A stretch of 63,425 bases of DNA, counting the filler, from Globobulimina sp. (Eukaryota), in NCBI GenBank assembly GCA_003354225.1. It is 37 parts of 37 records of this genome, joined end to end, with 100 filler letters (N's around TTAATTAATTAA, not from the genome) between each part and the next. Parts side by side here need not be neighbours in the genome. Positions count along the whole stretch, not along the records: positions 5,155 to 6,772 come from PIVH01014042.1; positions 6,873 to 8,490 come from PIVH01014043.1; positions 8,591 to 10,208 come from PIVH01014044.1; positions 10,309 to 11,926 come from PIVH01014045.1; positions 12,027 to 13,643 come from PIVH01014046.1; positions 13,744 to 15,360 come from PIVH01014047.1; positions 15,461 to 17,077 come from PIVH01014048.1; positions 17,178 to 18,794 come from PIVH01014049.1; 29 more parts are not named here. One strand, given 5' to 3'. The position numbers were made by a program, and so were the translations under genes. The first letter of the stretch is position 1. Every line of letters starts with the position of its first letter. Below, piece after piece: positions 5,155-63,014 of the stretch. The notes under the pieces were generated by a model. The model saw nothing but the letters and a program-made list of their open reading frames with translations. It made no database searches and was not told where the DNA came from.

Positions 5155-5624
5155 TTCACTCCAACCGAATATTTTTGATGTTTATCACTTATTTTTTCAT
5201 TTTCTTTTAATTTCTTGTTTAAAATAATAATATGCGAATTTGAGTTCATTCCAAACCATTCCACGCAGTGTGCCAATAATGTAAAAAAAGCATAGCCTAA
5301 AATACATCCAAATAGTCCCCAAACATTGTCCGGAAATATAAAATAAAATTGAGCCAAACATCCACAACAAATACTTAATATTATCACAATATTACGAATA
5401 TCTGTAAATAAATGAAATTCTAAATATCCATTCATTGAAATAAACTATGTATGAAATCAAACATTACATAAATATTATTAATAAAAAACACATCATCAAA
5501 TCAAATCAAATCAATTAACTTCAATTAGTTCATCATCCAACACCTTCTTTATTGAGAAGAAATTAGACAGATTCACTCGAGGCTTTTTAGCAGTATACGG
5601 AGCAGTCTTAATACGTTTCATCAT
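5155..5624 (-). CDS. SPCS2: Signal peptidase complex subunit 2 (SPC25), 3' truncated; intron 5519-5445
   Basis: The spliced product ..SIRKVLDDELIEFISMNGYLEFHLFTDIR.. followed by two TM helices matches the SPC25 pattern (K..LDD...GY.E...L.D.R). Confidence 0.75.
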
Positions 5625-5793
5625 TAGACCAAAGTCAACTAACTGTCTCGAAAAACTTTGACTTTTAATGTCTACTTCAGTTATGTCAAAGAAGATTGCT
5701 ACTCTATTGTCTCTAGTCTCGTCCTATGGTTTATAATTCATTTGAAAAATAAACCTCCACAAGAAAATCGATAATGGCAAATGCTACAGAAAT

Positions 5794-5860
5794 TGTCGCA
5801 TAGCTCAAGCAGAGAACTGGATCAATCCAGAAGATACAGGTTCGAATCCTGTGGCGACAG
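5794..5860 (+). repeat. tRNA-like element / tRNA-derived SINE head, copy A
   Basis: Cloverleaf: acceptor TGTCGCA/GGCGACA, A-box-like TAGCTCAAG, stem CTGGA/TCCAG with a 4-nt loop, T-arm ACAGG-TTCGAAT-CCTGT. Confidence 0.75.
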
Positions 5861-6231
5861 CAAATCATTATGTAATGGATTTGGATTTTATGAAATGGAT
5901 GAGTTTGAATAGAAAAAAATGGATTTTGTGGTGAGAATTTGGTGGTGATGTAAACCACCACGGATTAAAGAAGCAATGCCATATAATTTGCGATTTGATG
6001 GCATATTATTTACAATTTAATTGCATATTATTTACGATTTGATACCCCATATTATTTTCGATTTATTACGCGATGTCACGTGCGCGATGTTCATTTCCAT
6101 GGTGCAAGAATACTAAAATAACAAGAATATGTAACCAAGCTGAAAACATGTATTGTTGCTTATGCATATCTATGCATATTAGAAGAATTTAAAAAAATTC
6201 CACGGTGCTGAAGCATCTAATTTGTCAGAAA

Positions 6232-6310
6232 TTTCGCGCATAAAGAAGCTCCATCGACAATAAAGGGATGCGTCCAGAGATTCAGGTTCAAATCATGAGG
6301 CTGCGCCAAC
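6232..6310 (+). repeat. tRNA-like element, degenerate copy B
   Basis: TCCAGAGATTCAGGTTCAAATCATGAGG matches the 3' half of copies A and D. Shares the upstream CAGAAATT and downstream CAAAT context with copy A. Confidence 0.55.
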
Positions 6311-6570
6311 CAAATACAAGCAATGAAATTAATGAATTGAATGAGAATGAATTGTGATAAATTGGATTGAGATATATTGAATTAATTGGGAATACAGGGA
6401 TAACTCCTATAAGAAGCAGAATCGAAATAAAGGGGATCCCGTCCTAGATAATGAATTATGTATGACTATATGTATGACCAAAAAATCATACATGTATGAC
6501 TATAGGAGAGGGTTTGTCAGGTAAATATTGTCATACATTGTATGATTTTTCCTAAGGGAATGTGTGTTTT

Positions 6571-6772
6571 TTTGGGCTAACTAGGGCATAAAGTGCACAT
6601 TCCTCTTAGGATAACTCGGGCATAAAGTTGCGTGTAAAAAAGTGCACCTTTGTCTTACGATAACTCGGGCGAGTCGCTCGACCAAACCACCTTACGATAA
6701 CTTGGACATGACTTGCGTGTAAAAACACATTCACCTTAGGATAACTCGGGCGTAGGTTGCGTGTAAAAAATG
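6571..6772. repeat. Degenerate minisatellite, core CTTA(G/C)GATAACTCGGGC, period 37-49 bp
   Basis: Core at 6605, 6654, 6691 and 6735. Most intervening sequences share TTGCGTGTAAAAA. Confidence 0.8.
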
Positions 6773-6990
6773 NNNNNNNNNNNNNNNNNNNNNNNNNNNN
6801 NNNNNNNNNNNNNNNNTTAATTAATTAANNNNNNNNNNNNNNNNNNNNNNNNNNNNNNNNNNNNNNNNNNNNGAGTAATAAGCCAAAAATCAATGATTGA
6901 ACAAATAAAAATGAAATATATCAAAAGTTTTTCACACATATAAATGTCTTGTAACTCTTTATTCGTCTCTTATATAAGGAATATAAGTAC

Positions 6991-7150
6991 AAAAATTAGA
7001 ACAGTGTGTCAGCAAAATTAGAGCAGTGGGTCAGCAAAATATAGTGCAGTGGGTCAGCAAAATTAGAGCAGTGTGTCTGCAAAAAAATTAGAGCAGTGGG
7101 ACAGCAAAATTAGAGCAGTGTGTCAGTAAAATTAGAGCAGTGTGTCAGTA
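6991..7150. repeat. Tandem repeat, ~22-bp unit AAAATTAGAGCAGTG(T/G)GTCAGC, ~7 copies
   Basis: Directly visible. Confidence 0.9.
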
Positions 7151-8590: not shown

Positions 8591-10208
8591 AATGCGGATA
8601 TTCTGTTATCTGGCTGATATCCACAGTCATCGTGCAAGGTTTGTAAACATCGAAAAGTCCGCGTGTCCCATATTTTTACCACCTTATCACACGATAATGA
8701 TATAATTTGATGTCGCTCTTCATTCATTAAAACATGCGATATCGATGTATTATGTCCAACTAATAATTGTAACCGGGCACATCGATGAGGGTCAAAAATA
8801 TGAATCTTTCGTTCCACACCACAGGAAGCCATAAATTTATATTCTGCGTTATATGCAAATGAATGAACACCGTGACTATGGCCCATATAAATTCTAGTTT
8901 TTTTACGTCTTTCAATATCAGCAAACTTGATTTGTGAATCTAAGGAACAGGTAACTAATGATTGTAAATCTCGGTTATATTTAATATGTGTTATCCAATC
9001 ATTGTGTATGTCCATAATATGTGGAGTTACGCCAAAACGACTTGGCTGCAAATGGGAGCATGACAGTATTGGATTGATAATATTTTGTTCTTCTTCACTC
9101 ATATTATTACCGGCGATGTTATTATTATTATGGTTTCTGCGTTTATTCCATTTATACATTTTATTTTTGATGGATGCTTGATTGGGTGCCAATGACTGAT
9201 CGCCGCAACAAATATGAAACTTATCTGCATTTAAAATGTACAAAAACGCTTTGCCACTTTCTGTGCCAACACTTAACAATTCATTATTGCCATTGCCATT
9301 CAATATGGATGCATCGGCACAAACCGGTGTGGAGGTAATTAGCCATCGCTGTTCTTCTTTGTTCAATTTCTTTAATGAATCTCCATACTTTTCACCGAAA
9401 ACATAAGCTTTGTTCATAAATTGACAATTTAATTTCCAACCAGTTGCAGAATAAATATTTATTATACCGTCCATGGATATTGCTGCTATTTGATTGCTTA
9501 ATGGTAAGTGTAATAAGTCCATCACCCATGATTTAGTTGGACTGTTTAGGATTGTTTTTTTGATTTGGAATGTCGAGCTATCCCATAACTTTATAGTTCC
9601 ATCCAAACTGTTTATTCATTTTCTAAAATGTATACAAATGCGAAATGAGCTGAAATGTATATTGTATATTAAATACCTTCCAGATATATATCGAGACTGG
9701 TTTGGGAAATGCAAAATCGATGATATCATATCAGAATGGTTACTGTGGTAATTGTCGCATTGCATAGTTTCGCGAACTAACATGTCTCTTTGCTTTTTTT
9801 TTTGTTTCTTTTTGTTTTTTCCGAGCTATATACAAAAAATAAAACGTAACTTGGTGAAAGTTGGAACTTTCCAATCCTTGATTTTCTAACAATAAAAAAT
9901 TTAAGAATTCTTCCCAATCAACTGTGCCATCTGAATTTGCGTCTATTTTCATGAAAAGGTGGGTTAAATATCGTTTACTGTTCGCTTCTTCCTCTTTATC
10001 AACGATTATGTTTGTATCATTTTGGTCGCTTGTTTGTTCATTTATTCCTCCCAATACAGATTCGAATACCTTTACGAACTGATACATATCCAAACCATTT
10101 GGTTGGCAGTAGAATATACGTTCGAGCTCAACCATTTGGTTGGCAGTAATTTTACGTGTTCCGCTGCATTGTCATTGTTATATGATAGTGATATATATGA
10201 TAGTGATA
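8591..10208 (-). CDS. EF-hand + WD40 repeat protein (WDR49/EFCAB8-like), partial, spliced
   Basis: EF-hand LFMKIDANSDGTVDWEEF followed by WD repeats (SLDGTIKLWD, GH..GV, DKVVKIWD). Introns at 9850-9793 and about 9676-9608. Confidence 0.85.
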
Positions 10209-10308: not shown

Positions 10309-11926
10309 GGCGCGTTACTGGGCGTTTTTGTTGGTACGTATGTATTTGGTGGATTATCTGTAGGTATTTCACTTGGCGCTGAGCTTGGATTTAATGTAGT
10401 TTGTACAGCAGAAACTGGATTATTTGTTGGATATTGTATAGGATTATTTGTTGGTGATGTTGTTGGATCTAACGGTGATTTGGTGGGTGAGCCAGGAATA
10501 ATGGGTGAATCGGTTGGATGTGGTGTTGGGTAATCTGATGGAGTTGGCGTTGGATGATCAGAAGGTGAGCCAGTTGGGATATTGGATGGTATCTTTGTAG
10601 GGTTATTGCTTGGGAATAATGTAGGATTCCTTGTTGGTGATGGTGTTGGTGATTGTGATGGATTATATGTTGGCGATGGTGTAGGATTTGATGGTGATTT
10701 AGTTGGTGAACCAGGTGTAATTGGATGAGATGTAGGTGGTACAGTTGGATTGTTTGTTGGTGCTATAAAAACGTTTTTGTGATATATAAGTGTTTAACTA
10801 AATTAGTAAACTGATTGATTATATAGTTGTGACTGCAGTGTGTGTCTGCATGTGTGCTTAAATGGGATATCGAATGAAAGAAAGTTAGGATTTATCCAAA
10901 AGAAAGAAAAGAAAAGAAATTGAAACTTGAAACAAAGTGGGCAATGTCTCATTTAATGTATCTGGAATTAAAAATTCATTCATGGGAAGCTAAGCCTTTA
11001 TGCAGCTCATCATATATACTTTTATATTGTAAACGTATGCAAGCTCATCATCAACACGTAAAACATGTACGTTGTATAAATAAATCATACTTATCGTTGG
11101 TTGATTGGTAGGAGAGGTTGATGGCTTGTTTGTTGCTGCTATGTATAATAATTATATTATATTATAAACTACGAAATCGTTTTTGCATTCTCAATGAAAT
11201 AGATAGCTGGACTTGGATTTTTTGAGGGGGGAGATGTTGGATTGTGAGATGGAGATGAAGTTGGATTTCGAGTGGGTGATGCAGTTGGATTTGTTGTCAT
11301 TGTGCTTGGAACAGATGTTGGAGAACCAGGTGTTGATGGATTATCTGTTGGTGATCGAGTTGGACTATTTGATGGTGTTCGTGTTGGATCGCTTGTTGGT
11401 TCTATATAAAAATGTTCATTATAAAATCCGGTGCAATGTGCGAGTTTGGTATAAATACGTCATACTTGTCGAGGGTTGATTTGTCGGAGAAGGTGTTGGA
11501 TTTTTTGTTGGTGCTATGCATTATTAAAAACATAGGAAATCGTTTTTGCATTTAATTGTACTGTGCATGTACCTGGAATTGGATTCTTTGATGGATTATT
11601 TGTTGGATTGTCTGTGGGTGATTTTGTTGGCTGATAACTTGGGTTATTTGTACGTGGTTTTATTGGCTGATTTGTAGGTTTTTGGGTCGGGGCAATTGTT
11701 GCATCGGTTGGTGGGGATGTTGATGTCTTTTAGGGTTTAATTCATTAATTTAATGTGTAACATAGATATTGCATGTGTACGAATATAGATACTTAACACA
11801 GAAATTAGTATCACCATAAAATATATTCGGAGGGTCAACACTTTGCAGCACATCAAGAAATTCAATAACTTCATTGTTAGTATTTGTGACACGGACAGTA
11901 AGCGGAGCACTGAATGACAAACCACC
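10309..11926 (-). CDS. Expansin-like C-terminal (CBM63-like) domain followed by a long PT-repeat mucin stalk, multi-exon, partial
   Basis: The first exon reads GGLSFSAPLTVRVTNTNNEVIEFLDVL...FYGDTNFC. Downstream exons encode P-T/S-x-x repeats and are separated by GT-AG introns. Confidence 0.65.
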
Positions 11927-20611: not shown

Positions 20612-21977
20612 GATCTTGGTTGATACTGGACAATTACAAGATTTATATCGTCCATCGCTATCAACAGGAATCTATGGAAGTTATTTTTATTCTGCAAAAC
20701 ATGAAAAACAAAGTAAAAACATCAAAACACGGAAACATTTTCAATTAAAATATATTTACGATGATGAAAAAAAGGGAGATGAACAATTAACAGATATAGA
20801 AAAGCAAAATATTAACGAGTTTAGAAAGTTGTTATCATCAAAACATGGATATATTGAGAATGTCGATTATGTATATTCAGGTATTTGTGTTTAATTTATT
20901 TTATTTTATTTCATAAATATTATATAAAAATATGTTAATTTTCGTATATGAAAAACAAACATAGATTTGGTACGTTTTGTGATTGGATGCAAACAAAACT
21001 TGGACATCGCTGAAAGAAATTTTTTGAATTTAAAGTCGTTAGAAATAAGATATAATTTAAATGATGTTCGATTATCTGACATTGCGAGTGAATTAGCAAA
21101 AGAATGTTATATTTTATGTGGCTATGATTGGCAAAATAGCGCGATTATTGGATTTCGAATAAATCAGTTCGTCAAAAAAGGAATGAATATCGGCGTAATG
21201 ATCCGTGCCATGCATTGTTTAATCGATGCAGTTACATCTTCCATTTATACATTGCGGAATGGCATTGTTTTATTATTTGATATGAAAGGAGTCAAAAAAG
21301 AGAATATGTCTTTAGATTTGGAGACAATTTTTATTAAATCTTTTCAAAATTGTTATCCTTTGCGAATTAAAAAATTCATTGTTGTGGATGCGCCTGTTCT
21401 CATTCGTGCAGCTATGCAAATTGCAAAATTATTGTTATCCAAGAAATTGAGTGGAAGGATTATTTCTGTTAAATCTGATCCAAACGGAGATTTATGGAAA
21501 TTGGTGCCATATCAAGCTGTTCCAAAATGCATTAATGGCAAATTTGATTCCTGTATGAATGCGTGGCAGTATGTGTGCAGTAAAATAATTAATAATGTCG
21601 CAAATAAGCAACAAGAAAATAAATATATTTTGGACAGACTTTGTGAGAAAAAAGGAAAAGGGAAATGGGACAAATATAGATTGCGACAATTTAAATTAAG
21701 GAAGGATGGCATTTTAGAATATTGGGATGGTAAAATATTAAAAGGTTTGATAGAAAATAAATTTCTAACTGTAGAAAAGAATGAAAATAAAGGAGAAATG
21801 ATGCAATTTGGTTGGCAGATAGTTACGGCGGAAAGAACCTGGCATTTGGCTGCTAAAAATGATGATGGTTTGTTAAAACATAAAAAAACAGAAAGAAATG
21901 AATGGATCGAAAATATTAAACGTTTTTGCGATGAACCCAGTGATAAACAAGAAGAAAAACAGACAACTGTCCAGTAA
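20612..21977 (+). CDS. CRAL-TRIO (Sec14) domain + C-terminal PH domain protein; intron 20881-20964
   Basis: GIVLLFDMKG, QNCYPLRIKKFIVVDAP, then a PH-like segment (KKGKGKWDKYRLRQFKL...RTWHLAA...ERNEWIENI). Confidence 0.85.
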
Positions 21978-24426: not shown

Positions 24427-25662
24427 TTACATCACATCATTAATTTGAGAATCCGCAGAATCGGCAGTAGAATCACTAGTACTTTTACTTATTTTCAGTT
24501 GATTTATAGGTAAAATAGGTTCATTTTCTTCGGGCTGATTAATATTCACATTTTTTTTTAGTTTTTGGATGAAATCAATATTTGGATTTGCAGCTGCCTT
24601 AATCCCCGAAGCTGAGCACAAACACCGTAATTCTGTATAATTGACAGACATTTTAATCAATAAATCGTTGGGTAACACATTGATACATTTCACTGCTTTC
24701 TCCCTCAAGCACGGTCTCAACCTTTTGATATTATTTCGAACTCTTTCCCAGATCCAATCGGGCGAATTCTTTTTGGATTTAAATAAGATGAAAAAATAGA
24801 TGGTAGACTGGAAAAACGCGAAACTGTCCGCATCCATCAACAGCCCCAACTCTTCCATCAACGTTTCAGGTGCGGCTGCCACCAATATCTGGTCCAAAAT
24901 CACTATATTTTCACCTACAAAATCATAAATTTGTCATGTAAATTAGTCCAAAATCAGGCATACAAATTGCAAACTTAACGTGGATGCGGAATGTCGTGGT
25001 ACATAATCATTTGGTAAATGCGCTGCGTTTCTTCTTTGGTCACCGGAGCGCCTTTCAATAAACACGCGGCCACTTTGGCAGAGGTTATGCCATGAATCAC
25101 CTGCTTGCGATACTTGTCCACGGCCTACACAGTGCAGAGTATACAGTGTGGCGTTAAAGTACATTTACATCACAATCCACACAAAAACAGAGAGTCATAC
25201 TAAACTTCAGGCAAATATTCGCATTTGGTGCTGGGAATAAACCGTTCGATATCTGAGCAAAAAAACGCATTATAAAAGGCCAAAAATGATAAAAAAAAAA
25301 CGGTTTGAAGATGGAAAAAACACTTCCAAACCGAAAAAAAAACGGTTTCGAACCGGTACGGTACATACCATGACACCACGCACTGTACAAAAGGGAGACG
25401 GATGGGACGCGGCCTCTGTCTTTAGCGAATTTAGCGGCCCACGCTGCCACTTCTTTGAAATGCTTCCTATCCGTTTTCTGACGCATTGTATACGTATTTG
25501 GTGTATTGGAGGGAGCTGACAGGGAGAGACTGGTCATACCTTTGTGTATTCGTTGGGCGGCTCTATGTTCATATATGTAAACTGCACCACTGCGCCCAAT
25601 ATTTTTAAGCGGATATAATCGTTGGATTTGGCAGTGATGCCACTTTGCCTCGCTTCTGCGTA
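24427..25662 (-). CDS. Uncharacterised multi-exon protein, 5' truncated
   Basis: GT-AG introns (e.g. 24979-24915) join the frames ..NEYTK|KTDRKHF..AWCH and ..AVDKYRKQ..DIPHP|RENIVILDQ. Confidence 0.55.
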
Positions 25663-25903: not shown

Positions 25904-26983
25904 GTTATCGCCATGTCAAGACACTTGCGTTCATCGTAGTGGCACAGACTTAGGCTCATCCAAAGCCTATCCAGCCAGCGCCAATTTTGATAGTGGTTAT
26001 ATGTCAACCAACGCCAATGTCAACCCATTGACATATAATTGGAATACAGTGTTTGTAAAATACTGCGATGGGGCAAGCTTTTCAGGCCATAATGACACAA
26101 CGGAGACATCGGGAGCAGTCACATTGCATTGGCGGGGTTGGAGAATCTTGAATGGTGTTTATAAATTGCTACAAAGCAAATATAACTTCGACAGAGCCAC
26201 TGATGTGCTGATGTCTGGCTGTTCTGCCGGAGGGTTGACGACGTGGTTACATTCTGATTATGTGTATGATACATATGTAAAGGTACAATTATGGTTACAT
26301 TTTAATTGCAAAATGCTTTATATATCATATGTATGCATAATATATAGCCGTTGGGTGCAAATTTTATGTCAATGCCGGACAGTGGTTTTTTTTTAGGTAT
26401 TTTATATTAAAATATGTAGTCATTAATATATATATTTGTGTTGATAGAGTATGAAGGAACTGGTAAATTTATAACGGCGATGCAATGGTTATTTGCATAT
26501 CAAAATACTTCGTCTGCGTTAAACGCGGAGTGTATGCACTCGCATTCGAACACAAATGATGGATATAAATGTATGTTTGCACAAGAAACTGCTCCATTTG
26601 TTCGCGTCAAAACCTTTCCATTGCAGTCTCGTTTTGATTCATGGCAAACTGGATGTGAATTGCAGTCAAGTGATGCGTCGCAAATTAATAATTATGGCAG
26701 TCAGTTGACGACACAGTTTGAAAATATGTATGTTAATGGCGGCCAATATGCGCCAAATCATGCTGCATTTTTCGATTCATGTTCTCATCATTGTTAAGTG
26801 GATATATATGTTGTAATAACATCAGATGCATGTATTGTATGTGAAGGTGGTGCCTGGAATGGATTTAAAATTGATGGAATGACTGCGAGTAATGCACAAT
26901 TGCAAGTTTATTATGGTAATAATACGCATAATAAGTTCTGGTTCCAACAAGAAACATATCCGTGTACTAGTTGTTGTCACTAA
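25904..26983 (+). CDS. Pectin acetylesterase / Notum-family hydrolase, spliced, 5' truncated
   Basis: CVHRSGTDLGSS, NPLTYNWNTVFVKYCDGASFSG, SGCSAGG, DSGFFL, FDSWQ and SCSHHC motifs. Three short introns, including 26793-26846. Confidence 0.92.
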
Positions 26984-32630: not shown

Positions 32631-34096
32631 CAGTTGGATTTGATGTTGAGGCTGACAATGGATTTAATGTTGGAGATGATGTTGGGGATGATAATGGATT
32701 TGAGGTTGGAGCTGGTGTTGGATTTGGCGTTGGATTTGAGGTTGGGGATGGCGTTGGAGATGACGTTGGAATTGGTGTTGGAATTTGTGTTGGAGATGGT
32801 GTTGGAGATGGTGTTTGAGATGGTGTTGGAGATGCTGTTAAGAGTGTTGGATTTAAGGTTGGAGCTGGTGTTGGATTTGAGGTTGGGGCTGGTGTTGGAA
32901 CATTTGAAGGATATTTTGTTGGAATATATGTAGGTTTTGTTGTTGGTGGCGGCCTGAAACAATAAAAAAACGAACAATTTAAAAACAATAAAAACAATTT
33001 AATACAGATAAATTTATAAAAACAATAAAAACATATCGGATACTTAACACAATAAAATACTGCCAACAATCAAGCCTCGCATTGCTGCCACCTCCAACAC
33101 CTCCAAATGCATAAATCACATTATTTACATTGATCACCGCGGCATTACGTACCTTGTAGCTCAATACACCACCATTTGTTACTTGCCCGCTAACAGAGTC
33201 TATGACTTGAATAATATCCAAATTGTAACTGCCATCATGTCCGCCGATTACCAATATTTTCTCGTATGCTACCACAGCTCGAGTGGAGGTAACAGCAGAA
33301 AGCAAGACATCGCTATCCGACCAAGCCTCCGTTGAAATGTCACCACCAACGTATATTTTTTCAACTGTATTGGTAAATCCATGGCCAGGGTCTAAGTTAT
33401 AAGTGCCACGCATTACCCACAGATCGGATGTGCCGGGATGTACAATGCAGGCAAAATTCCGCCGACCTAAATTCATTGCGGGCATGGCAGGAAGCCAGGT
33501 CTTGGCTATTAAATCCAATACGGACAGGTTAGCATAATAAGTGGTGATTTGCAGATTATACCCGCCCATTACAAAGAGCCTGTCATTCCATGAGGCAACA
33601 CAAGCTTGGCCATCGCCATCATATGACAAACTTTTACTGTTCCAATGATCAGTGTAGGTTTGTGTTTTCAAATCAAAGGTGTCGATCTGAGCACCATCCA
33701 ACACTAAATAGCCATCGATGATGTAAAGAATGTCGTTATATTCAGCATAATATGTGCCAAGTCCGTACGTGTTGGAGATTGTGGATGTTCCAAGATTGAC
33801 CATTTTGTTATTTGCTATTTTATATTCCATTACTTGCGTATATTTATCCCAACCACCTGTGACAGTGACACACAACATTACAATTTACAAACAAGGCATT
33901 TGCAATAGATTGAGGTATGAAACTATGAATTTTAATTTTACGCACCAACAAGAAAAATAGAGCCGTTGTAATGTCCAATTGCCATTCGACTGTTTGTTAC
34001 GGATAAAGGTGGCGTTGAGACTGGGATCCAATCAGATAGGGAATGTGTGCATATGTACAGTATTGAACTGACACACAACAATGTTTTCGAAAGCAT
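32631..34096 (-). CDS. Secreted/surface Kelch-propeller protein with PT-repeat stalk; 2 introns (second 33048-32954)
   Basis: Signal peptide [19 protein letters not shown], Kelch GG motifs, then PTxxPT repeats. Confidence 0.85.
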
Positions 34097-34660: not shown

Positions 34661-35964
34661 TTATTCCTTGGTCTCATTTTTACTCTCATCCTGATCATTC
34701 GCCTCAGGAATCCCACTCATTCCCTCCGTTATCACCTCCTTGGAATGGACCAATAACTTATTTAAATGTTTAATAATCGTCGCTCTTTCTTTATCATTCT
34801 TTAACCCCATCATTTTTAATGAAAAGTCATTCAAATTATTTAAATCCGCACCAGATACATTATTTGTAATTAACTCCCTTTTGAACTTCAAAAACAACTC
34901 TGATTTATTCAGCAATCCTTTGTCAATATTTTCAAACCAAGTCACGACCTCTCCGGAATTCCAGGATTTATAATCTGGCTCAAACTTAACCACTTTCTCT
35001 TGCATACTCTCCACCGATTTGCAATATTGTTTGCTGATCACATCGATTGTCTTCATGAACTCCACCAATTTCGCGGCCTTCTCCTTTCTGTCATTGATAA
35101 ACTTTTGAAATTGTTTGGTTGCATTATTTATTTGTTGCATATTGATTTGGCATTTTGTCATTTGATGCTTTGAAACTTGCAGTTGTTTTTCTAATACTTT
35201 GCGTTTGACGGACAATTTGGAGATTTTCTCATAGATTTCGCTGATTTGTTTTTTGTATTCATCAATTTTGCATTTTATGCCCATATACTCGTTGCTTTTG
35301 GGTCCATTGTGTTTTATAATTTGTTGCAATTGTAAATTATATCGATTTGCTTCAATGTGATAAGATTGCCATTGCATACCTATGGATTGCGACACTTTTA
35401 ATAATTCTAATCGCTGTCCTTGCAACGTACGGATAATATGTGTCCAGTTTCGCATTGAATCCAAACCGCCCATTTGCTTTTCACATACTTTATGTGTATT
35501 TAATATCCCATCCAATCGCCTTGTAACAAAAGCACGCATGTTTTAAAGTATGTACTTAAAAAAAAAACTTGAAGATTTTCACTTAACAGTCTTTCATTCC
35601 AAAATGGTTCCGCTAAATGACTCCCTTTATGGTGTTGATTAGTGGCTATATTGGTACATTTACCATTTACTAATTTCAATTTCTTCGCAGGTGGCTGCCT
35701 TGAACACGTTTCCGTTTCTGTCTCTGTTTCCAATCGAGGTAACATTTGAATTGGATTCAAATTTGTTATTTTTGTAATTACATCACTGTTATTATTCGAA
35801 TTCATTCGTTTTTGTAATAATATCAATTGTTGTAACTGTTGTAACCCATTTTGATTGATATTCGTATTAATCGTCGCCTTATTCAATACTTTTAATGCGG
35901 GAAACAATGAGAAATTTTGAATCTGATTCTGAGGTAAACTGATTTGTGGAAATTGCAATGTTCT
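34661..35964 (-). CDS. Coiled-coil + SAM domain protein, spliced, 5' truncated
   Basis: SAM pattern WNSGEVVTWF...NNVSGADLNNLNDFSLKMMGL. Upstream Gln-rich exon. Confidence 0.75.
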
Positions 35965-41988: not shown

Positions 41989-42932
41989 TGTAAAATAACC
42001 TATATATTCCAATTTTTAGCTCAAACGAGCAACTATTTCCAATTATATGGCAAATTTTCTGTGTGATTTTTTAGTAAAACATGACTTTTTGACAAAAATC
42101 GATTTTGGGCGGGCAGAAAAAAACACTTTTAGGGGACATGCGATATACCATTCGATAGCCCTTGATGAGCTCTATCGACGCTCAGGGCCTTTTAATTCTG
42201 CGTCTCTTCGTTTGGGAGCAATGCTCGTTTAAAGTCGGACGACTAGACGTCTTCGGTGTACCTGGTTGTGTTGAAATCGTCGATTTGGCTCCGCATGTAA
42301 TCGGTTAGGTAAGTTTTGTATAGGAGTGGATAGAGTAGATCACGGGGATTATTTTGAGCTTTTTTTGGAGGAATTTTGACCATTTTTCGATTAGTTGTGT
42401 CGATTTTTGTGAAAAGTTGATGTTGGCGAAAAAGTTGATTTTGGACGAAAAACGCAAACGAGTGTAACTTTGCCAAAAATTGAGCGACGGGAAAAAATAT
42501 TTTTTCGAAACGAAAGTTTGGGTCGAGAGGAAGCTAATGGTGCCATTCCCATGTCTCTATCATGTTCTGGGGATGAATGGCGCACATTTGAAATAGGTGC
42601 CCAAAATGGACCCCAGGTTTTTATCGGACTTCGAATTCTCTCCCACCCCCAGGGTTGACCCGTAAGACGGGGTAGGTTGTCCAGTGTAGCAAAGTGTTAC
42701 CTCTACCCATCCACCGTGTTTTATTAGCCAAGCTCAATTGGTTGGTGCAGGAGAACATTTGAGGCTAGGTGATACATCGCATATTTCAGCCATATATGCT
42801 AGTTGGGCCCCCCCCTGGTATGTACTGTATGTNNNNNNNNNNNNNNNNNNNNNNNNNNNNNNNNNNNNNNNNNNNNTTAATTAATTAANNNNNNNNNNNN
42901 NNNNNNNNNNNNNNNNNNNNNNNNNNNNNNNN

Positions 42933-46190: not shown

Positions 46191-46265
46191 TGGCGCTTAG
46201 CTCAAGAAGAGCACTGGAATTATGATGGATATGTCCAGAAGATTCAGGTTCAAATCCTGAGGCGA
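46191..46265 (+). repeat. tRNA-like element, copy D (cut by contig end)
   Basis: TGGCGCTTAGCTCAAGAAGAGCACTGGA-15 nt-TCCAGAAGATTCAGGTTCAAATCCTGAGGCGA. Confidence 0.75.
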
Positions 46266-46891: not shown

Positions 46892-47981
46892 TTACAAAAC
46901 AGATATCTTCATCGATATGACATTGCCCGTTCCACAATAAAAAACAACCCGATCCTCAACAATAGACACTCCACCTTTTATCACATCGTATTTTTGAGGA
47001 CACGACAAAGTATAAATATGTGTTCCATTGAACAAACTATGAATAAATACATGCCCAGAATATGACGGAATAAATACCATATTTCCAGAAATTGTAACTG
47101 GTCCAACAAACAGTCCCGCATTACTTGCTCGATTCGCATATCTCTCTGCATCAATGGGTGGTTTATGAACATTATCTGATGCAGTTTCTGACGCATTCTT
47201 CATCCTCTCGCCATTTACATCTCTTTCGCATGAATGCTCCACAGCAATGTCGACATATTCGTCATACATTGAATCCGTACAATTGCCATCGCCAACATTA
47301 CCATATACGGATTATAAATTTGCCACACTGTGTATCCAGTGTTCAAATCAATAGCATGCGCACTCCCAGTTAAGCCACATAATGTTGTTCCATCCGCCAT
47401 TTTATATCTATAACTCCCATCGCCGCCAGTTATTGTTGTAACTGCTATCATATGGATGGGATCCACAGCAATCCCCCATTGACCACCACCAATTACTGAC
47501 CATGGACCTACTTTTTTGGCAATCACAGCTTGCCCCGATTCCAAATCAAACACATAAAATTGCCCCGATTTCTGCATTGCCGCACCGTATAATTTTCCAT
47601 TATGTTTGTATGCAGCCACAGCGCAAAGATCACTATCAGGCCCATCAAACAATGGAGAATATGCCGCTTGACACCACGCATCAGCCCCTTGTACCGGTAT
47701 AATATGCATGGCTTCAAATGTGGTCTTATCAAATATCATGAATGAATTCCCTTTTCTAAACATCTCCACATATTCGAATCTGAACATCGATCCGCACCAC
47801 ACGCATCATAACAATATGCATCTTCTAAAGCTAGCGCTGAATAATTGCCATTCATACATTGTTCAATGTACTTAGGGAAAGTTAATAAATTTCCAGTTCC
47901 AAACACTAAAATATCATCGATGATTGCCGCGATACAAATATGGATCAGTTGAATCTATGCTACTTTCATTGTATCCAAATT
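46892..47981 (-). pseudogene. PQQ-type beta-propeller (polyvinyl-alcohol-dehydrogenase-like) pseudogene
   Basis: VFGTGN, QKSG.FY..D..SG, VGP.S..GGGQWG.AVD and A.D..TG..VWQ motifs spread over four frame segments. Confidence 0.75.
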
Positions 47982-48081: not shown

Positions 48082-49697
48082 AGAAGGCACTACCAGTGCT
48101 CGAACATTAACTTAATAAATAATCAAAGATTGTCACACGTTAACACAAATCACAAGATTGTTAAGTCGCGACGTACAAACAACAAAAACAGAAACAAACA
48201 ACAAAAGTAACCCAAGTTAATGTATCTAACGAGCAAAGTTAATAAATATATAATTAATTGATTGGTAGATTAATGATGATCGTTGAAATAAAAATATTGT
48301 GCATAATGCTCCAATATAGCGACAGCATTCTCCTTTTGCAATTTTCCTAATAATTTTCGATAAATAAGACATTTTTGTTGATTTGGATCAAGGTTTTTAT
48401 CAACACATTTTGCATCAATAATATAGTTCAAAGTTTGTTTGCTTTCGTAGTTAATACCACCCATAGATTCGAAGATAAGTGGTTTATATTTGTAATTTAA
48501 CTCCGAATTATTGATAATTGCCTCATATTTACGTGTTTTCGTCGCATAATAAAGATCGGCACAAACCAATCTATTATCGGCACATTTGGTTAATTTGCTC
48601 TCTCTATTTCTTGTTCCATTGTCGCTGACAATGTTCGTAATGCCAACATCTATGGCCCCGTGATGTTGAGGGAATAAATTAAATACCATAATATCCGCCG
48701 GTTTTTTACTTGAGTCCTCAACCAATCCATTGAGTTCTAATTCGCATTTATATCCGGCTCCTTTGCAGATTTCCATCACAGCACATGCCATGGAATTGTG
48801 CCTACCAATTCTACCGTGTCCGAATGAGCAATTTAAGCCATGGTCGCCGTATACATCTAATTTAGCTGTACATAGCAAGCAGTCGGCTTCCTCTTTCATT
48901 ATCGGCATATTTAGTCTTCGTTTCATTAATAATCTAAATTGTACATTGTCATAATCGATGCCAAAGCCGACTGCAAGATTTACTTTCAACCACGAATCAC
49001 ATTTCCAATTTGAGATTGATTTTAATGCTGCTCTCCCGCGCGAATCGTACACAGTATACAATTCACTCAGATACGACTTATCGATACGATCTATCAACTC
49101 CGACTGCATAAATTTGCCTTCTTCATTGATTCTAAACTTTGGCAATACTTTTGAATTATAATTGTTTACTGCCAAATCTCTCATATTCTCCATTTTTTTA
49201 TTTGTAAATAGGATTAAATCATTATCTAATAACCTTTTTAAAACATTATTGATGCTCGAATTGCAAGATAAGAATGCCGCGCTTTGTATTTGTGTAATTG
49301 TGCGCATGCTTAGACCACCTCGTTTAGACGAAATACTCGCATGTTTTATCGTGGTATTTGACATATTTTCACCTACGATTTTATTGTGAATCCCAATAAA
49401 AATCTCATCAAACTTTATTTGCCATTTACTAACGCCATAATAAGATAAATTTCTGGCCAAATAATTGATTTTGTTGATGTTATAAAAGTTTGATATTAAA
49501 ATGTATTGATGATGGATCGATTTCAGTTTTTGAATCATTTTGAGGTTCTTGAGCCATTTTGTAATTTTATCAAACATAAAATTATCGACATCTTCTTTGC
49601 TACCAATTCGTACTCCCATTACTTCAAAAGATCCTTTCTCCAAAATTTTCAGATTGGAAAAATCAATTTTGTCGGCACCTGGAATATTGAGTGTATT
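48082..49697 (-). mobile_element. Non-LTR retrotransposon with restriction-like endonuclease (CRE/SLACS-like clade), 3' part; ORF ends at 48270
   Basis: Post-RT VMGVRIG and KRGGL motifs, zinc knuckle CLLC...DHGLNC, RHN, KPADI, AIDV, K..KY, PLIFESMGG. Confidence 0.9.
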
Positions 49698-50148
49698 NNN
49701 NNNNNNNNNNNNNNNNNNNNNNNNNNNNNNNNNNNNNNNNNTTAATTAATTAANNNNNNNNNNNNNNNNNNNNNNNNNNNNNNNNNNNNNNNNNNNNTAA
49801 TGAAGATGAAAAAGATAATTTATGAATTGTTTTAATTTTGTTTGTTCGTGTAATGACATTTGGCTCATAGCTCCTTCATACTTCGGTGGTCCTCGTCTAA
49901 TGACTTTTTTGCTTTGTTTATATCCTCATGACTACTAATAGTAGTCATGTAACCTCATGAATCTATTACTAAATGTTTTTTTTTGACTTCAGACATTTTG
50001 ATTTAACATAGCCGCTTTCGGCTGCTTCGCATCACATCAATACATAGATTAATATCATTAATTAAATCAAGTCACTAATTTTAGAAAATTGATTGTTTTA
50101 ATCAAAATCATTTAACTGTTTTATTAATCAATAAATACTAATCTAAAA

Positions 50149-51413
50149 ATGGATGAGAATGCAGTTCGTGCCGCATGGAAAACAGGCGCAAATTGTCAAA
50201 TATACTCCAATTCAAAAAAGAAATGGTTCCACGGAGAAGTAGCACAGATTTTCACCGACGAAGAAGGAGAATGGCTTGAAGTTAAATATCAACACAAACC
50301 TCCCAATCCACTCAAACAAAATGCAACAATAATACCAACCATCAAGGTACGATACGATAAATCAATGAGCAAACAAGTACAACGATACAGCTCTGACATT
50401 CGACCGCATGTTAAGTATCCCTTGTTTTCCAGCCTCGGCGCTCAACAACGCACACACTCAAAACAAAAACACTAACATGGAATTCTATGCTATTCTCGCA
50501 CTATATCCCCACCACAAAACCGCCGCATAATCGCATCATCCAACACTCCAAAACCCTTAAATTCAAATCCCCCAACAACAGCCTGACGATATGAAAAAAA
50601 AGAAAAAGGTGAAGCCCAAATCCGCCGAGAATACCACGCCTTTCACCGACGAAGAAATGAAGGTATGACCGCACCAACCCTCCCTTCCTCACACTCAATA
50701 TACAGCCCACTAATCCCCTGCATATATCTCCTTCCATGCCCACAGCAACAACAATTTGCAGAAAAAGAACGCGCGGTAACACACCTCCATTGACCCCCAA
50801 TCATAACCATATACACATACACACTATACACGACACACAATGCACAGTTGCGCCAGTCCTGGGACAAAGGCGACGAAGTGGAGATCTTCAGCAACACGCA
50901 CCAGGAGTGGTATTTGGGCGAAGTTGTAGACATCATCAAGGACGACGAGGGCGAGTGGCTCAACTGCGTCTGGGCGCGCGCCAACGGCGAGGCGATGAGC
51001 AAACAGGTCCAGCGCTTCAGCACCGACGTGCGCCCCGTCCAAGACGACTCCACGTCGGGCGACAGCAGCGACGACGGCGGCAAAGCCTCGCCCGGGCCGC
51101 CGCCGCATAGCAAGCCGCCCAGAGCCAACAACGTCGGCGCCCAGACGCCCGGCGAGAAGATCAAAGTTTTGGCGCAGAAGATCGCGCAAAGAAAGACCAA
51201 CTTTCGACGGCGCGCCCCGCCCTTCTCCAGAACCTTGCGGCCGTCGACCTTTACATATCCCGCCACTTCCTCTGCGCGGCGAGCGCGCAAATTGCTCGAT
51301 TTGGAGGAAACGCTCGAGAAAAACCAACATGTGGTGGAGCAGATGCCCGTCGCTGGCAAAGTTGAGTACTATTCGTTGTGTGCGATTTTGCGTATTATTG
51401 CGTTGTGGGTTGC
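50149..51413 (+). CDS. Multi-exon protein with two tandem Tudor/Agenet/SH3-like ~60-aa domains, 3' truncated
   Basis: Repeat W..G..(C/V).I(Y/F)SN....W..GEV..I..D.EGEWL.....MSKQVQR(Y/F)S.D(I/V)RP occurs twice. First intron 50281-50346. Confidence 0.75.
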
Positions 51414-52729: not shown

Positions 52730-53129
52730 TCAATTTACATCCCCCTTTAATTTCCATGACTCATGATATCCATTTATCTGACAGTTTTTGTTTGCGATGA
52801 CAAATATTGATTTGCCGTTATAAGCAATCACATTAATATTTGACGATACGTTTTTAAATTCTTGCAATACTGCATTTCCATTAAATATTAATGCAGTACT
52901 CTTATTATTAAATATTAAAATAAACATAAAATCCTTGATTTCACTCATTTGTAACCAATGAATTACATTTCCAATATTTAACATAAATGTCATTGCATCA
53001 AATTGTTGACTACGTACCGAAATATGAATCTTTATTTTCATTTGTTTTCGTTTTCGTTTTTTAGTTTGAAATAATCCTTTTTCAATACCAACCAATATCG
53101 ATTCAAATAATTTACCATCATCTCTAAAT
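52730..53129 (-). CDS. C-terminal fragment of an unidentified protein
   Basis: Open frame of more than 120 codons running from the contig end. Confidence 0.4.
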
Positions 53130-53351: not shown

Positions 53352-54845
53352 CTACTCCGTATTGTTTGAAGTATCTTCAAAACTCAATTTTTTTTTAAGT
53401 TTTTGTATTGTATCATCCGATGAACTGAATAATTTCTGGAAAATATGTTTAGCAAAATATTTTGAATCATGCTTCACCGGATGGGATGCCTTCAATTTAT
53501 TATCCTCATCTTTTTGCTGTTGAATATATTCCTCTTTTTGTAACGTATCAATGCGATTTGCTTCCTTTGCCATGGCGCGAACCACATTTTTATTCAATAA
53601 AATATATGAATTCAAGTCCTTCAATATTTCATTTTGTAACTTTTCATCTGGCACCAAATCCATATAAACTACATTTTCAACTTTCTGTTCCTCGTTAGCT
53701 AAATCTTGCGTTTTTTCATCTGCGGTGCCTGTAAAATACTCAATGTTTTGCTTACATATTTTATTTAACAATGCATATTTTTTAAAATTTATCTGATGAT
53801 CTAATGTCTTATTTAATTTATTCTGATTTCCATCATTTGCAAATGTCAAATCCTTTAATATCAATCCCAAGAATGGAATGCCGGGCGGTTTCATTATTTC
53901 GCAGTAATCCCTCAACTTTGAATAGTTCATTTTTCCGCTGCAGAGTGGCGATAAAAACTCGTTCAATTTCCTCCGCGTTGACTTATTCAAAAACTCACTC
54001 GAAATCTTCAATTTTTGCACTGAGAGCGAGTTCAAAGCACTGCAAACCGCCATGAATGAGTGCAAGTTATTCAATTTCAACAATGTCTAAAACAAAAACA
54101 TTTAATTTTGTAGCAACAAATCAAAATCAACACACTTAACTTCCGCCACATAAATAAAAAACTCCATCATTTTCACTCTCGTTTTCTATATATTACAACC
54201 ATCAAATTCATTCCTTCGGTTTTGCATAAATCATCAGATAAAAAGGCTTAACTAAATCGGGCGAACCAATGATTGACACAATAACGTACTGATTAATTTG
54301 CTGGAACCTGTCAATAAATAATTTGATCGATTGGTGTTTGCGCGTATCCTTTTTGGATAAAATCTTATGCAAACATTCCCGACAGCTGATATTGCAAAAA
54401 TACTCCCAATCCACAATGGTTAATTGTTTCGCATATTCCCTGGCTGTATCTGTGTTTTTCAATGCTAAAAATGATAACATATTGACATTCTCGTCCTTGT
54501 GTTCAGAATTATAATCTGAATCATACTCAATCATATTATCATAATTCACCAATTCTGTAAATAAATCGTCTGAAAACTGAGCAACATCCTTTTCCACAGC
54601 AGAGGTCGACGGCGTTCTGGACCGATTTTCAACGCTCAACATCCTGTTTCTGGTGAAATTCTTGGATTTCTTGATCTGTTTATCCCAGAGCTCCTGATGT
54701 TGTTTGTGTTTATTTTGCAGTTCGCGCACAATGTTTAAGTACCACTCCTCGCGAGAATTTATAACGCCATTTATTTTCAAGATATATTGTTGGAGGAAGG
54801 CTGCATATGTTTTATGATTCGAATTAGAATCATAATTATCATATT
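53352..54845 (-). CDS. RasGEF (CDC25) domain protein, 5' truncated; introns 54252-54186 and 54140-54087
   Basis: AKQLTIVDWEYF, spliced SPDL|KTRVKMMEFFIYVAE|TLLKLNNLHS, PGIPFLGLILKDLTFANDGN, INFKK. Confidence 0.92.
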
Positions 54846-56062: not shown

Positions 56063-56067
56063 AATTC

Positions 56068-56278: not shown

Positions 56279-56329
56279 CAAAATTCTAACTTATCATATT
56301 CTAAACAATCGTATATTAATCTTATATTA

Positions 56330-59307: not shown

Positions 59308-59653
59308 ACTAATTCACCATGCAAAAAATGAAAAAGTATCATTTGCACTTATTAATAAATCCAAATGCATTGTGTAAATATAATATATTCTCTCTTATAA
59401 TTATATATTTTTTCTTTTTTTTTATTCTGTGTTTTGTGACAGGTTTTGTGTACCTTTTTTCTTGTAGAAAATTAACACGACGTAGGAGTTCAACGGACAA
59501 AAAAAGAGCAGCGGATTTTTATTGTTTCAGAGAAACCTAAAAGAAATGTTTTCAAATTGAATCGAGTTAAAATCAAGAACAATATTTTAATTTAAAAATG
59601 AAATAAATATTACAAATAGATTGTTTATGCCCATATTTTTAATAAAGTATCCC

Positions 59654-59993
59654 ATGAACCAGTACAAAGTGCTTGTCAACTGCGACGCCAACGACCTGGT
59701 CATGACCTAGTACCTGGCTGCCTGTCAGCAGAGAGGACGCTACACCGACACTGCCTTCAACCTAGAGGGCACTTCCTTCGTGGCCGACAAGGTCTACCCC
59801 TGCAGAAGACTCAGCAAGGAGACCGCTCTCTTCGACCCCCGTGTGAAATTCTACGATATCGCCTGTCCCGCCTGTCTGCCCGACCTGGAGTCCGTGCTGA
59901 ACCTAGTGTCTCACCAGTCCCGTCTGCTGGAAAACACCCTCCAGTTCCAGCGATTCTCCCAGGCAGATCGTATCGGCCGGACTCGTCACCATC
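59654..59993 (+). CDS. GC-rich ORF with in-frame TAG at 59708-59710, 3' truncated
   Basis: MNQYKVLVNCDANDLVMT*YLAACQQRG... with strongly C/G-ending codons, unlike the flanking DNA. Confidence 0.5.
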
Positions 59994-61306
59994 NNNNNNN
60001 NNNNNNNNNNNNNNNNNNNNNNNNNNNNNNNNNNNNNTTAATTAATTAANNNNNNNNNNNNNNNNNNNNNNNNNNNNNNNNNNNNNNNNNNNNACAAAGT
60101 AAACAAATTAAAGAGACAAAGCCTTAATTTTATTTCAGAAATCGGACAGAGATTCTCATCATAAAACAAAAAGGCCTCAGATGATTACATACCATTTTTT
60201 TAAATGATATTCTCTTTTAATAATTTTACCGCTTGTTGGAAGTTAGCTGTATCATCGCACTGTCTTTGTGTTCTGTTGGTGGTTCTGTGTTGGGCGCAGT
60301 AGTAGTTTGGTTTATACTAGAGTGCGCGTTGTGGGTCAATTTTTCTGCAAAAGATAGTTGCTTTACAAATGATGGTTGTTTGAATGAAGTTCGTTTCTGT
60401 TCAGTAGATTGTGCCATGCTTAGTATGACTGTTTTTTAATAGTTGAAAAATGACCCACCATTCCATACACGAAATTTGGATAAATGACACGAATATTTCC
60501 CCTGACAGAAAATATACACTGATGCAGATCCGTTATTGGAATATAAATCCGTTACTACATGTGACGATCGTGTGTCACGAGCGATTTGGGCAGGAAAGAG
60601 TTTGAGATTAAGTGTGTCAGCATTGACGGAGAGGTGCTCGCGAAGGAGACGTGTATGTTGACTGAGGAGTCCAATGTGATGTCGAGTGTGGAGATCAAAG
60701 GCTTTTGTGTCTTCACCATGTGTTTGTATTGCGTGTTGTCCTTTGATATTTAAACTCACTGGTTTGCCTTCCGTCATTGCTTCCAATACTGGTCTCGTGA
60801 CACAATTATCTGAAAAAAATTGTGCGTTGCAGAATCGAATACAATTGCCTGATTCTTCTTGCCTTTATACCTTTTGCCCAAAAACCCACCTTCAGCAGTG
60901 GATACATAATAACATATGAATGCTTGATCTAATACTCGTGACATCGCTATATTGATCGGAGAATATTTATTTTTTCACTTTGAAAAATTAATTTTTTATG
61001 ATTTTTACCAATAAAAAAAAAAATATTTTGGTATTCGCGTGTGTGGAGAGCATGGACTGTTATGGTATGGTTGTGCTGGCAATTGTATTAAAATCAAAGC
61101 AAAGACAAAGGATGAATGGAAAAAAATCGTTCAAATCAATAAAAAATTTGTGCATAAATGGAAAAAGAAAATACGGAATAAATTTGGAAATTGTTTGCAG
61201 TCATGTGTGAAAGAGTTCAAAAAATATGTGAAATGTAACGAAACTGAATGTGTCAATACATTTTGTAATAATATTTCAATGTTTTTGGATGCTTTTTGGC
61301 ATAATG

Positions 61307-61498
61307 TAAAACAACTTGGGATTTACACACGAATCAGTCAGTTTCAAACTGAAAATTGTCACAAAATGTAAAACAACTTGGGATTCACACACGAATCAGT
61401 CAGTTTCAAACTGAAAATTGTCACAAAATGGCAAAAATATAAAACAACTTGGATTCACACACGAATCAGTCAGTTTCAAACTGAAAATTGCCACAAAA
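61307..61498. repeat. ~61-70-bp tandem repeat, 3 copies
   Basis: AAAACAACTTGG(G)ATT(C)ACACACGAATCAGTCAGTTTCAAACTGAAAATTG(T/C)CACAAAA. Confidence 0.92.
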
Positions 61499-61809
61499 CG
61501 GGAAAAGATTCAATCGAATATTTCAGTTATGCTCCAATAAAATGTATGCGTTTGGTATTAAATTGTATGGAAAGGATTATTATATCAAAGTAATGGAAAA
61601 TACCGGGAATTGAAGGCATTGATTGTGTCTTTTATGACAGATGACTGCAGTCTCATTACCTCTCTGTTTTCCAGCCTTAGACAACGCGACCAAGAAACAA
61701 CACCGATTGNNNNNNNNNNNNNNNNNNNNNNNNNNNNNNNNNNNNNNNNNNNNTTAATTAATTAANNNNNNNNNNNNNNNNNNNNNNNNNNNNNNNNNNN
61801 NNNNNNNNN

Positions 61810-63014
61810 AAATTATCTTTATGATTATCAATCTCTCGCAAAGGGATGCTTATTTTTAATTTTTTCATCCATTTCTTAAACTGCTGACCATTATAATTCA
61901 CATATACATCCTCATAAATACCCCAAATAGGCTCCAGTATAAACTCCACAAACATGGGTAAAATATGATGTTTATAGCCTTTTTTGTGTATATTATTCTT
62001 ATAAAAGTAATAGTTTCCCCATAATGCGTTGATTAATACTTTGCGATTCATTTTCTTTCGAGAATGGTAATATTGCGCCACACTTTGGATGGTGAAGCCC
62101 CATTTATGCTTCGCCGAACAAAATATGACATTGCCTTTGTTTGGGGAGAAGAACCATTCACTTTCTTCATCCAATTTGACAGTGTACTCACTGGTATCAA
62201 TCACTTTTTTGTTCCCATCATCGTCGGCAATGTGCAAGTTTTTCTTTTTTTCACTATGAGGGTGCTCCGAATGTTGTTCATGTATCTTTTTAAATGCTTG
62301 GCCAGTCGCAAAGGTGGAGACCAATGCATTGATGCGACCGATTAATTTGTCAATGTGTACGTATGCTTCCATCGCATTCATATTTAGCTCTATTTTTAAG
62401 CGATCCATTTTGTTTAATACTAATATTGGCACAACACATTCAGTCCAGGCCTGTTTTAATACGGATATTGTCTGCACACAAATGCCTTCCAATACGTCTA
62501 CTAATACCAAAGCACCATCGCAGAGTCGTACGGCGGTGGAGGCTTCATTGGAAAAGTCAACGTGGCCCGGACTGTCCACTAAATTCACTAGAAATGGTAC
62601 TGCAGTATGTGTTTTTAAGTGTTTTTATTTTGACGATGTTTAAGTACATTGCAAACTTAACATTTTGCTTTCCGTGGCATGTAAACAAGTGAGATGGAGG
62701 ATGCCTTCATCGTGATTTGGCGCTCTTGTTCATCTGCACTGTGTGCATGTGTTATTTATCATGGTTTTAGTATTTTTGTTTGTTTTTTAGAATGTATGAA
62801 TAATCAAAATAGCATAGAAATTGCATAAACCTAACCGGCTATCTAAATATCTGAGATTGCCAGCGTTTTTGGATGATATGATACCGTTCCATGAGATCAG
62901 ATGATCAGATAACGTAGTTTTGCCGTGGTCGACATGTGCTAAGAAACAGACGTTTCGAATATTATCTGTTTGTGTTTGCAAAGCAGCTATTTCGTTTAAA
63001 GTAATTCGAGGCAT
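61810..63014 (-). CDS. EFL1: Elongation factor-like GTPase 1 (Ria1), N-terminal part; introns 62835-62739 and 62661-62600
   Basis: [28 protein letters not shown]...[40 protein letters not shown] and NKMDRL motifs. Confidence 0.93.

Follow-up and report, generated by a model that had tools for sequence, protein, structure and literature searches.

How is an intron recognised when its 5' splice site reads GTTAAGT, that is, the canonical GTAAGT displaced by one base into the intron, and how common are such introns in a foraminiferan? The question is raised by a stretch of 63,425 nucleotides (nt) from Globobulimina sp. (assembly GCA_003354225.1), here called the window, in which a preliminary description had named 13 sites of this type as donors. 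All 13 are present at the positions and on the strands given there, the observation of GTT donors is confirmed as real and beyond chance, and the class is frequent. The introns of the window are ordinary GT-AG spliceosomal introns, but their donors come in two forms that differ in the side of the junction on which their information lies, and we discuss below how a single recognition system could read both. The analysis uses a curated set of 20 introns, all 20 with GT..AG ends, of which 15 have outside evidence from spliced contigs, homologous proteins or Pfam profiles and five (donors 33048, 24979, 11797, 5519 and 20881) were placed by frame logic. The window itself consists of 37 pieces, each about 1618 bases long, with spacers of the form N44-TTAATTAATTAA-N44 between them (for example 1619-1718 and 61710-61809); genes end at the spacers without continuation in the next piece, so that distances and gene order across pieces are meaningless.

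Removal of GTT introns can be followed directly in an EFL1-like gene on the minus strand, which extends from 63014 to the spacer at 61810 and breaks off there at residue 345 of the 1091-residue homologue P0001, the remainder being absent from the window. Read-contig evidence covers the one 1.6-kb piece that holds this gene (61810-63425), with two of the 13 claimed GTT sites (62661 and 62835), and comes from four sequencing runs, X1, X2, X3 and X5, none of which is on record as RNA. A 2117-letter contig from X5 aligns to the window in three blocks, 61810-62599, 62662-62738 and 62836-62972, and the two skipped blocks read CT..AC on the plus strand and hence GT..AG in the direction of the gene. 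Intron 1 (62739..62835, minus strand, 97 nt) has the donor GTTAGGT and the acceptor CACACAG, its flanks 62738/62836 being joined in contigs of both X5 and X1, and intron 2 (62600..62661, minus strand, 62 nt) has the donor GTTAAGT and the acceptor CTGCAG, with 62599 joined to 62662 in X5; over this second junction the homologue P0001 reads RKAK-L-PFLV. The X5 joints are exact, with no shared letters at 62599/62662 and one at 62738/62836. An alternative intron 1 donor, GTTTATG, 5 nt downstream, with the acceptor moved to match, would be equally possible judging by the sequence only, and is ruled out by the spliced contigs. Both joints are also present in X1, and X2 shows the one at 62662, where the X1/X2 joint carries five differing letters. 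Contigs of X3, a DNA-like run that is possibly the source of the assembly itself, traverse both introns unspliced, with one differing letter each. Over 61810-62740 the X1 and X2 contig pieces differ from the window by 3-7%, mostly at third-codon positions, and hence come from a close relative; since the same two exon junctions appear in that relative, both EFL1 intron positions are conserved there. Removal from the mature transcript is thus seen for both introns with contig data, the other 18 being placed by homology or frame logic.

Set side by side, the donors of the curated set resolve into two forms. Form A, (A)AG|GTAT(G/T), always has G at -1 and is little conserved past +4: among the eight GTA donors, G stands at -1 in 8/8, A at -2 in 6/8, T at +4 in 7/8 and G at +5 in 3/8. 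Yeast-type donors read GTATGT and share T+4 with this class, but here G+5 is found in just three of the eight and the exon-side AG is strongly conserved. Form B, N|GTTA(A)GT(AT), carries no exon-side signal and conserves T+3, A+4, A+5, G+6 and T+7, so that it reads as the canonical GTAAGT set one base further in; its 12 donors have A+4 in 12/12, A+5 in 10/12, G+6 in 10/12, T+7 in 11/12 and T+9 in 10/12, with G at -1 in a single case. The contrast at -1 (1/12 in GTT versus 8/8 in GTA donors) gives a Fisher p of 7e-5, and p=0.0014 among the externally supported donors (1/8 versus 7/7). The pattern A.GT at +4, +6 and +7 occurs in 9/12 GTT donors versus 1.0% of the 2150 GTT sites of the window, and AAGT at +4 to +7, the enrichment on which the preliminary description had staked the class in advance, in 7/12 of all GTT donors and 4/8 of the external set versus 0.6% of the same sites. 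With outside evidence the tally is eight GTT and seven GTA donors, with the frame-logic introns 12 and eight, and GTRAGT is used by none; the earlier statements that GTT(A)NGT donors are a major class (8/15 externally supported, 12/20 overall), that the rest are mostly GTAT, and that no donor reads GTAAGT or GTGAGT (0/20) therefore hold. At the other end of the intron, AAG acceptors (9793, with ten A's before it, 26846, 50346 and 11727) close four of the 12 GTT introns and none of the eight GTA introns; at p=0.12 this is not significant, and the classes may differ here too.

Over the whole window, GTTAAGT is found in 13 copies versus 6.64 ± 2.51 in dinucleotide shuffles, one of 100 shuffles reaching 13, and GTAAGT in nine copies versus 18.47 ± 4.56. 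Seven of the 13 GTTAAGT copies are counted as donors, four with outside evidence and three by frame logic, one at 35587 is possible, and one at 48160 falls in no group; two readings are possible at 35587, the heptamer as a donor or a start of the downstream open reading frame (ORF) at its own ATG. None of the 23 GT[AG]AGT sites in the window is a donor in the curated set. The canonical-looking cca|GTGAGTAC at 62191 (minus strand) lies within exon 3 of the EFL1-like gene, where the spliced X5 contig covers it without a joint, and at 42304 (plus strand) the sequence GTTAGGTAAGT, in which a GTT-type heptamer overlaps a canonical GTAAGT, stands at the end of an open frame of 48 codons; no gene model is placed in that piece. 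GTAAATT at 52738 was considered as a donor and dropped, a gap between two genes being more likely.

Beyond the EFL1-like gene, six further GTT donors and all seven externally supported GTA donors are fixed by homologues or by Pfam profiles. The pectinacetylesterase-like gene on the plus strand has a GTT intron at 26793..26846 (54 nt, donor GTTAAGT, acceptor TGTGAAG), which appears as an 18-residue gap against five of five homologues, all foraminiferal, whose sequence ..SCxHHC|G(E/V)WNA.. is continuous over it. The same number of homologues (5/5 in each case) places two GTA introns in this gene, one at 26283..26347 (65 nt, donor aag|GTACAAT) at the break ..DTYVK / PLGANF.. and one at 26397..26447 (51 nt, donor tag|GTATTTT) as a 17-residue gap between ..SGFFL and E(W/Y)(E/Q)G..; a donor at 26331 proposed by a codon-usage gene finder is disproved by the homologue alignments. 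An EF-hand/WD40 gene on the minus strand has a 58-nt intron at 9793..9850 with the donor GTTACGT and the acceptor AAAAAAAAAAG, supported by four of four homologues, which read NFDQ-Q-RDxLVR where the window has NFHQ|QRDMLVR and so fix both the donor at 9850 and the A10G acceptor at 9793. The acceptor previously assigned to this donor would need an intron of 25 nt and has to be given up. The second intron of the gene, 9608..9676 (minus strand, 69 nt, donor aag|GTATTTA), is a 23-residue gap between ..SRYISG and SLDGTIKLWD in 4/4 homologues.

The RasGEF gene, on the minus strand, holds two GTT introns that its Pfam profile brackets closely. Profile positions 1-63 end with ..SPDL right before the donor GTTAAGC of the intron at 54186..54252 (67 nt), and the ORF after the intron at 54087..54140 (54 nt, donor GTTAAGT) starts at position 80 and covers 80-180; the 15-codon exon between the two introns, with one further residue, corresponds to positions 64-79. 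The Ras gene, also on the minus strand, supplies three GTA introns. Identity to H-Ras ends after GGGGVG (G15) at the intron 4541..4611 (71 nt, donor ggg|GTATGCT), the next exon beginning KSTLTIRLL..; the alignment restarts with DPTIEDSY (D33) after the intron 4427..4488 (62 nt, donor acg|GTATGGC) and ends at DTAG (G60) before the intron 4294..4342 (49 nt, donor cag|GTATTTA), beyond which the next ORF begins with GQEEF, from Pfam Ras profile position 56 onward.

Three introns belong to a Tudor-like repeat gene on the plus strand. The first (50281..50346, 66 nt, donor GTTAAAT) is placed by gaps in the homologues, being a single 22-residue gap in seven of the 13 aligned, a gap of 18-20 residues in four, and no gap in two (P0245 and P0234); it is in frame and stop-free, and its retention would add 22 residues with the ORF intact. 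The second (50410..50581, 172 nt, donor GTTAAGTATCC) and the third (50663..50847, 185 nt, donor aag|GTATGAC) are fixed by the orthologue P0226, which reads ..DIRPH|PDDLKKKK.. over the one, where the next exon of the window begins PDDMKKKKK.., and ..QEMK|MRQGWDKGDE.. over the other, where the window reads ..EEMK|LRQSWDKGDE... A mini-exon at about 50760 was rejected as unsupported by P0226. The piece that carries this gene (49798-51413) is richer in guanine and cytosine (GC) than the rest, and its introns of 172 and 185 nt are C/A-rich with GC of 0.44-0.47; introns of the other pieces measure 49-97 nt with GC of 0.13-0.42, and the remaining intron of this piece (50281-50346) has 66 nt and GC of 0.35. 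The same piece contains GTTGAGT at 51361..51367 (plus strand), which had also been claimed as a donor: the motif is there, its acceptor would lie beyond the end of the piece, and the homologue alignment stops a few residues short of it.

Frame logic places the remaining introns of the set. Eight of the 13 sites first named thus have outside support as donors (62661, 62835, 26793, 9850, 50281, 50410, 54140 and 54252), and a ninth, in the Kelch/PT-rich gene (32954..33048, minus strand, 95 nt, donor GTTAAGTATCC), is by our reading the single phase-compatible GT-AG solution once Kelch Pfam matches have fixed the upstream frame. Three more are frame-compatible candidates, each with an alternative donor nearby: 24915..24979 (minus strand, 65 nt, donor GTTAAGT), with GTTTGCA 5 nt downstream in another frame, codon scores not separating the two frames; 11727..11797 (minus strand, 71 nt, donor GTTAAGTATC), with GTTACAC at 11761; and 5445..5519 (minus strand, 75 nt, donor GTTAATT) in an SPC25-like gene, with aag|GTGTTGG at 5543, the Pfam SPC25 match beginning at residue 3 of the downstream ORF. 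The fifth candidate is a GTA intron of a CRAL/TRIO gene at 20881..20964 (plus strand, 84 nt, donor cag|GTATTTG). Searches of PDB and Pfam with the small exons (the SPC25 upstream exon, the 24.9-kb gene, the PT gene, CRAL exon 1 and Ras exon 2) gave no matches.

What could read two such different forms? The conserved bases of the GTT class (T+3 A+4 A+5 G+6 T+7, often with A+8/T+9) complement AUACUUA, the standard 5' end of U1 small nuclear RNA (snRNA), and in silico the match to U1 is poor in the canonical register and good when displaced by one base. What the data show directly are the junctions, the two motifs and the contrast at -1; the U1 register and all that concerns U6 are inferred. The mechanism that we prefer, and on the sequence of 20 introns hold to be somewhat probable, is that standard U1 binds GTT donors in a register shifted by one base. 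Both forms would then be bound by one U1 snRNA with a standard 5' end (AUACUUACCU): Form A in the usual register, U1 pairing via -2 to +3, and Form B with a one-base shift that would set G+1 opposite C9, leave U+2 and C8 mismatched, and bring U+3 to U+7 (or +9) opposite A7 to A3 (or A1). The cut would still fall before the first GU and would be fixed later by U6, U5 and Prp8. The lack of G at -1 in GTT donors would be explained because G+1 itself would sit opposite C9 of U1. RNA duplex folding against AUACUUACCUG lets the GTT donors pair via UAAGU(AU), with lower energies than GTT sites over the window as a whole (Mann-Whitney p=2e-4). That the lineage as a whole has one standard U1 reading two genome-wide donor grammars in two registers, an exon-anchored AG|GTAT and an intron-anchored |GTTAAGTAT, is a wider proposal, which we make tentatively and at rather less than even confidence.

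Two other ways of pairing U1 with GTT donors deserve to be weighed against the shifted register. If U1 itself were altered, by an extra 5' base (for example ..ACUUAAC..) or through a second U1 variant, it could pair with GUUAAGU unshifted while another or the same U1 reads GTAT; the GTT class, at 8/15 and 12/20 introns, is too frequent for an exception, the three donors that extend to GTTAAGTAT make a continuous helix with a matching U1 conceivable, and variant U1 genes are known in other eukaryotes, as the covered parts of two reports describe (PMC3561869, PMC10870369). Positions -1 and -2 would, however, still face a C and a U of such a U1, favouring a G at -1 that is observed in one of 12 donors, and although this is a single indirect argument, we consider an altered U1 unlikely. 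A standard U1 in its normal register with one U, at +2 or +3, bulged out would account for the fact that GT-T-AAGT is GTAAGT plus one T, and has documented precedents in the parts of the literature covered (PMC4856993, PMC9311317); folding itself chose a bulged form for two of the 12 GTT donors (54140 and 54252) and an interior-loop form for 62835. Here, too, a G at -1 should pair with C9, and its frequency of 8/8 in GTA but 1/12 in GTT donors, indirect and from a small sample as this evidence is, makes the bulge improbable to us. It is because both a bulged U and an inserted base in U1 predict a favoured G at -1, which is not seen, that the shifted register is preferred.

The common 5' end might alternatively reflect descent and not a rule of recognition, if the GTT introns were copies of an introner-like mobile element. 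The unrelated introns starting at 62648-62661 and 24966-24979 (both minus strand) do share their first 14 bases, GTTAAGTTTGCAAT, the start at 62812-62835 (minus strand) is similar to both (GTTAGGTTTATGCAATTT), and three other donors share GTTAAGTATC. Yet the best whole-intron pairwise score among the 20 introns is 31, against 32 for the 99.9th percentile of a null from mononucleotide shuffles (a weak null), and the lengths (54-172 nt) and GC (0.18-0.44) are widely spread; this origin is very unlikely, and even if it were true, the donors would still be spliced and still need recognition. An artefact, with junctions off by one base or an assembly that adds a T at true GTAAGT donors, is barely credible: the assembly looks fragmentary, and spliced contigs do not cover intron sequence, but the X5 joints are exact and give GT..AG ends, the X3 contigs, albeit possibly the assembly's own source, agree with the intron sequence but for a single letter in each, and random homopolymer errors would neither target donors selectively nor remove the G at -1. 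U12-type introns (/RTATCCTT at the junction and a TCCTTAAC-like branch site) were rejected, since the junctions fall at GTTAAGT, the branch-site motif not having been searched for; GTATC is found at +6 to +10 in 3/12 GTT donors, away from the junction. The donors at 50410 (plus strand), 33048 and 11797 (both minus strand) read GTTAAGTATC(C), in which the inner GTATCC resembles a U12-type 5' end. A survey of 263 species gives 2.1% 'minor-like' introns for Reticulomyxa filosa and no minor-spliceosome snRNAs in Rhizaria, and the part of its text covered here has nothing on GTT donors (PMC11347168); as a speculation, an inner GTATCC could underlie the 'minor-like' scoring of some Reticulomyxa introns.

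Several points weigh against the shifted register, or against the prominence that we give to the GTT class. The sample is 20 introns, 15 of them with outside evidence, and the genes tested were those that carry claimed GTT donors, which biases the GTT share upward; for this reason 8/15 overstates the class, and our guess is that the earlier estimate, 13 GTT donors among about 30 introns, is the fairer share. The GTT donors form weaker duplexes with U1 (-1.4 to -6.5 kcal/mol) than the GTA donors (-4.9 to -8.0 kcal/mol), show no complementarity at -1/-2 to U10/G11 of U1, and have A+8 in only 4/12. Four of the 13 GTTAAGT copies lie within coding ORFs, that at 9277 being exonic by homologues, so that a donor is not defined by the heptamer by itself. 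U6, too, would have to accommodate the extra base. No snRNA, neither U1 nor U6, was found in the window by Rfam at the gathering score or at E<=5, the search returning only two transfer RNAs (tRNAs) and three weak, chance-level matches. A search of the window for the U1 5' end as DNA gave one match with one mismatch versus 0.69 expected, which is not beyond chance.

The rest of the window supplies context for these results. Its GC content is 29-37%, and its proteins match EukProt entries best (73-79% identity), with Ammonia sp. (MMETSP1384) and a paralogue from Reticulomyxa filosa next, which marks the source as a foraminiferan. A tblastn search of the window with 375 retrieved proteins revealed no additional genes. 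Two automatic approaches were abandoned, namely a gene finder based on codon usage and dynamic programming (10, then 30 introns), which missed or misplaced known introns, and scans of ORF pairs as a donor finder, which were too unspecific (1147, then 325 candidates). The two tRNA genes lie on the plus strand at 5794-5860 and 46194-46265 (Rfam scores of 39.3 and 32.4 bits), the second abutting a spacer exactly. In the piece that holds the EFL1-like gene, 63160-63425 is a high-copy repeat, where the summed depth of contigs climbs from about 5-45 into the hundreds or thousands in each of the four runs, and loose contig ends are numerous at 63158-63165. A beta-propeller-like ORF on the minus strand changes frame at about 47290-47310 (..TVWQIYNPY / GNVGDGNCTD..) with no obvious GT-AG intron; a sequencing error, a pseudogene or a very short intron could account for this.

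How, then, do the donors of Globobulimina compare with known systems? Shifted and bulged U1 registers are documented for rare human 5' splice sites (PMC4856993, PMC9311317), the +1 shifted register having been shown by suppressor U1 experiments (Roca & Krainer 2009, cited in Tan et al. 2016, PMC4856993); as with the following comparisons, we draw here on the parts of these papers that were covered. The human shifted sites resemble Form B in having GU, one extra base and AAGUAU, with the U1 complement one base off the cleavage site, as in the test oligonucleotide ACA|GUCAAGUAUA of Tan et al. 2016 (PMC4856993); they differ in being rare, whereas here about half of the checked introns have such donors, with T always at +3. 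The bulged registers (Roca et al. 2012, in PMC9311317 and PMC4856993) share with our donors the form of a GTAAGT with a bulged T at +2/+3, but G at -1 is found here in only 1/12. Entamoeba, with its GTTTGT consensus (PMC4053983), is a likeness of another kind, a whole lineage with T+3 and an extended non-canonical donor; there, however, G and T stand at +5/+6 in the normal register, and here they stand at +6/+7, A+4 in 12/12 and G+6 in 10/12 GTT donors departing from the Entamoeba pattern of T+3, T+4, G+5 and T+6. The literature searched, which did not extend to the R. filosa genome paper (Curr Biol 2014) or to Roca & Krainer 2009 itself, holds no account of GTTAAGT or GUUAAGU donors in foraminifera.

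The only known role of a shifted U1 register is the rare rescue of unusual human splice sites. If the two-register reading is true, the place where U1 binds would routinely be uncoupled in this lineage from the choice of the bond that is cut, which U6, U5 and Prp8 alone would set, and if about half of the introns use the shifted register, Globobulimina would offer a natural system for cleavage-site choice independent of U1 position. This would be of interest to research on splice-site recognition and equally to annotators of foraminiferal genomes: it would explain why tools for gene finding and intron classification do poorly in these genomes when trained on GTRAGT, and the annotation of Globobulimina and its relatives needs a donor model of two components.

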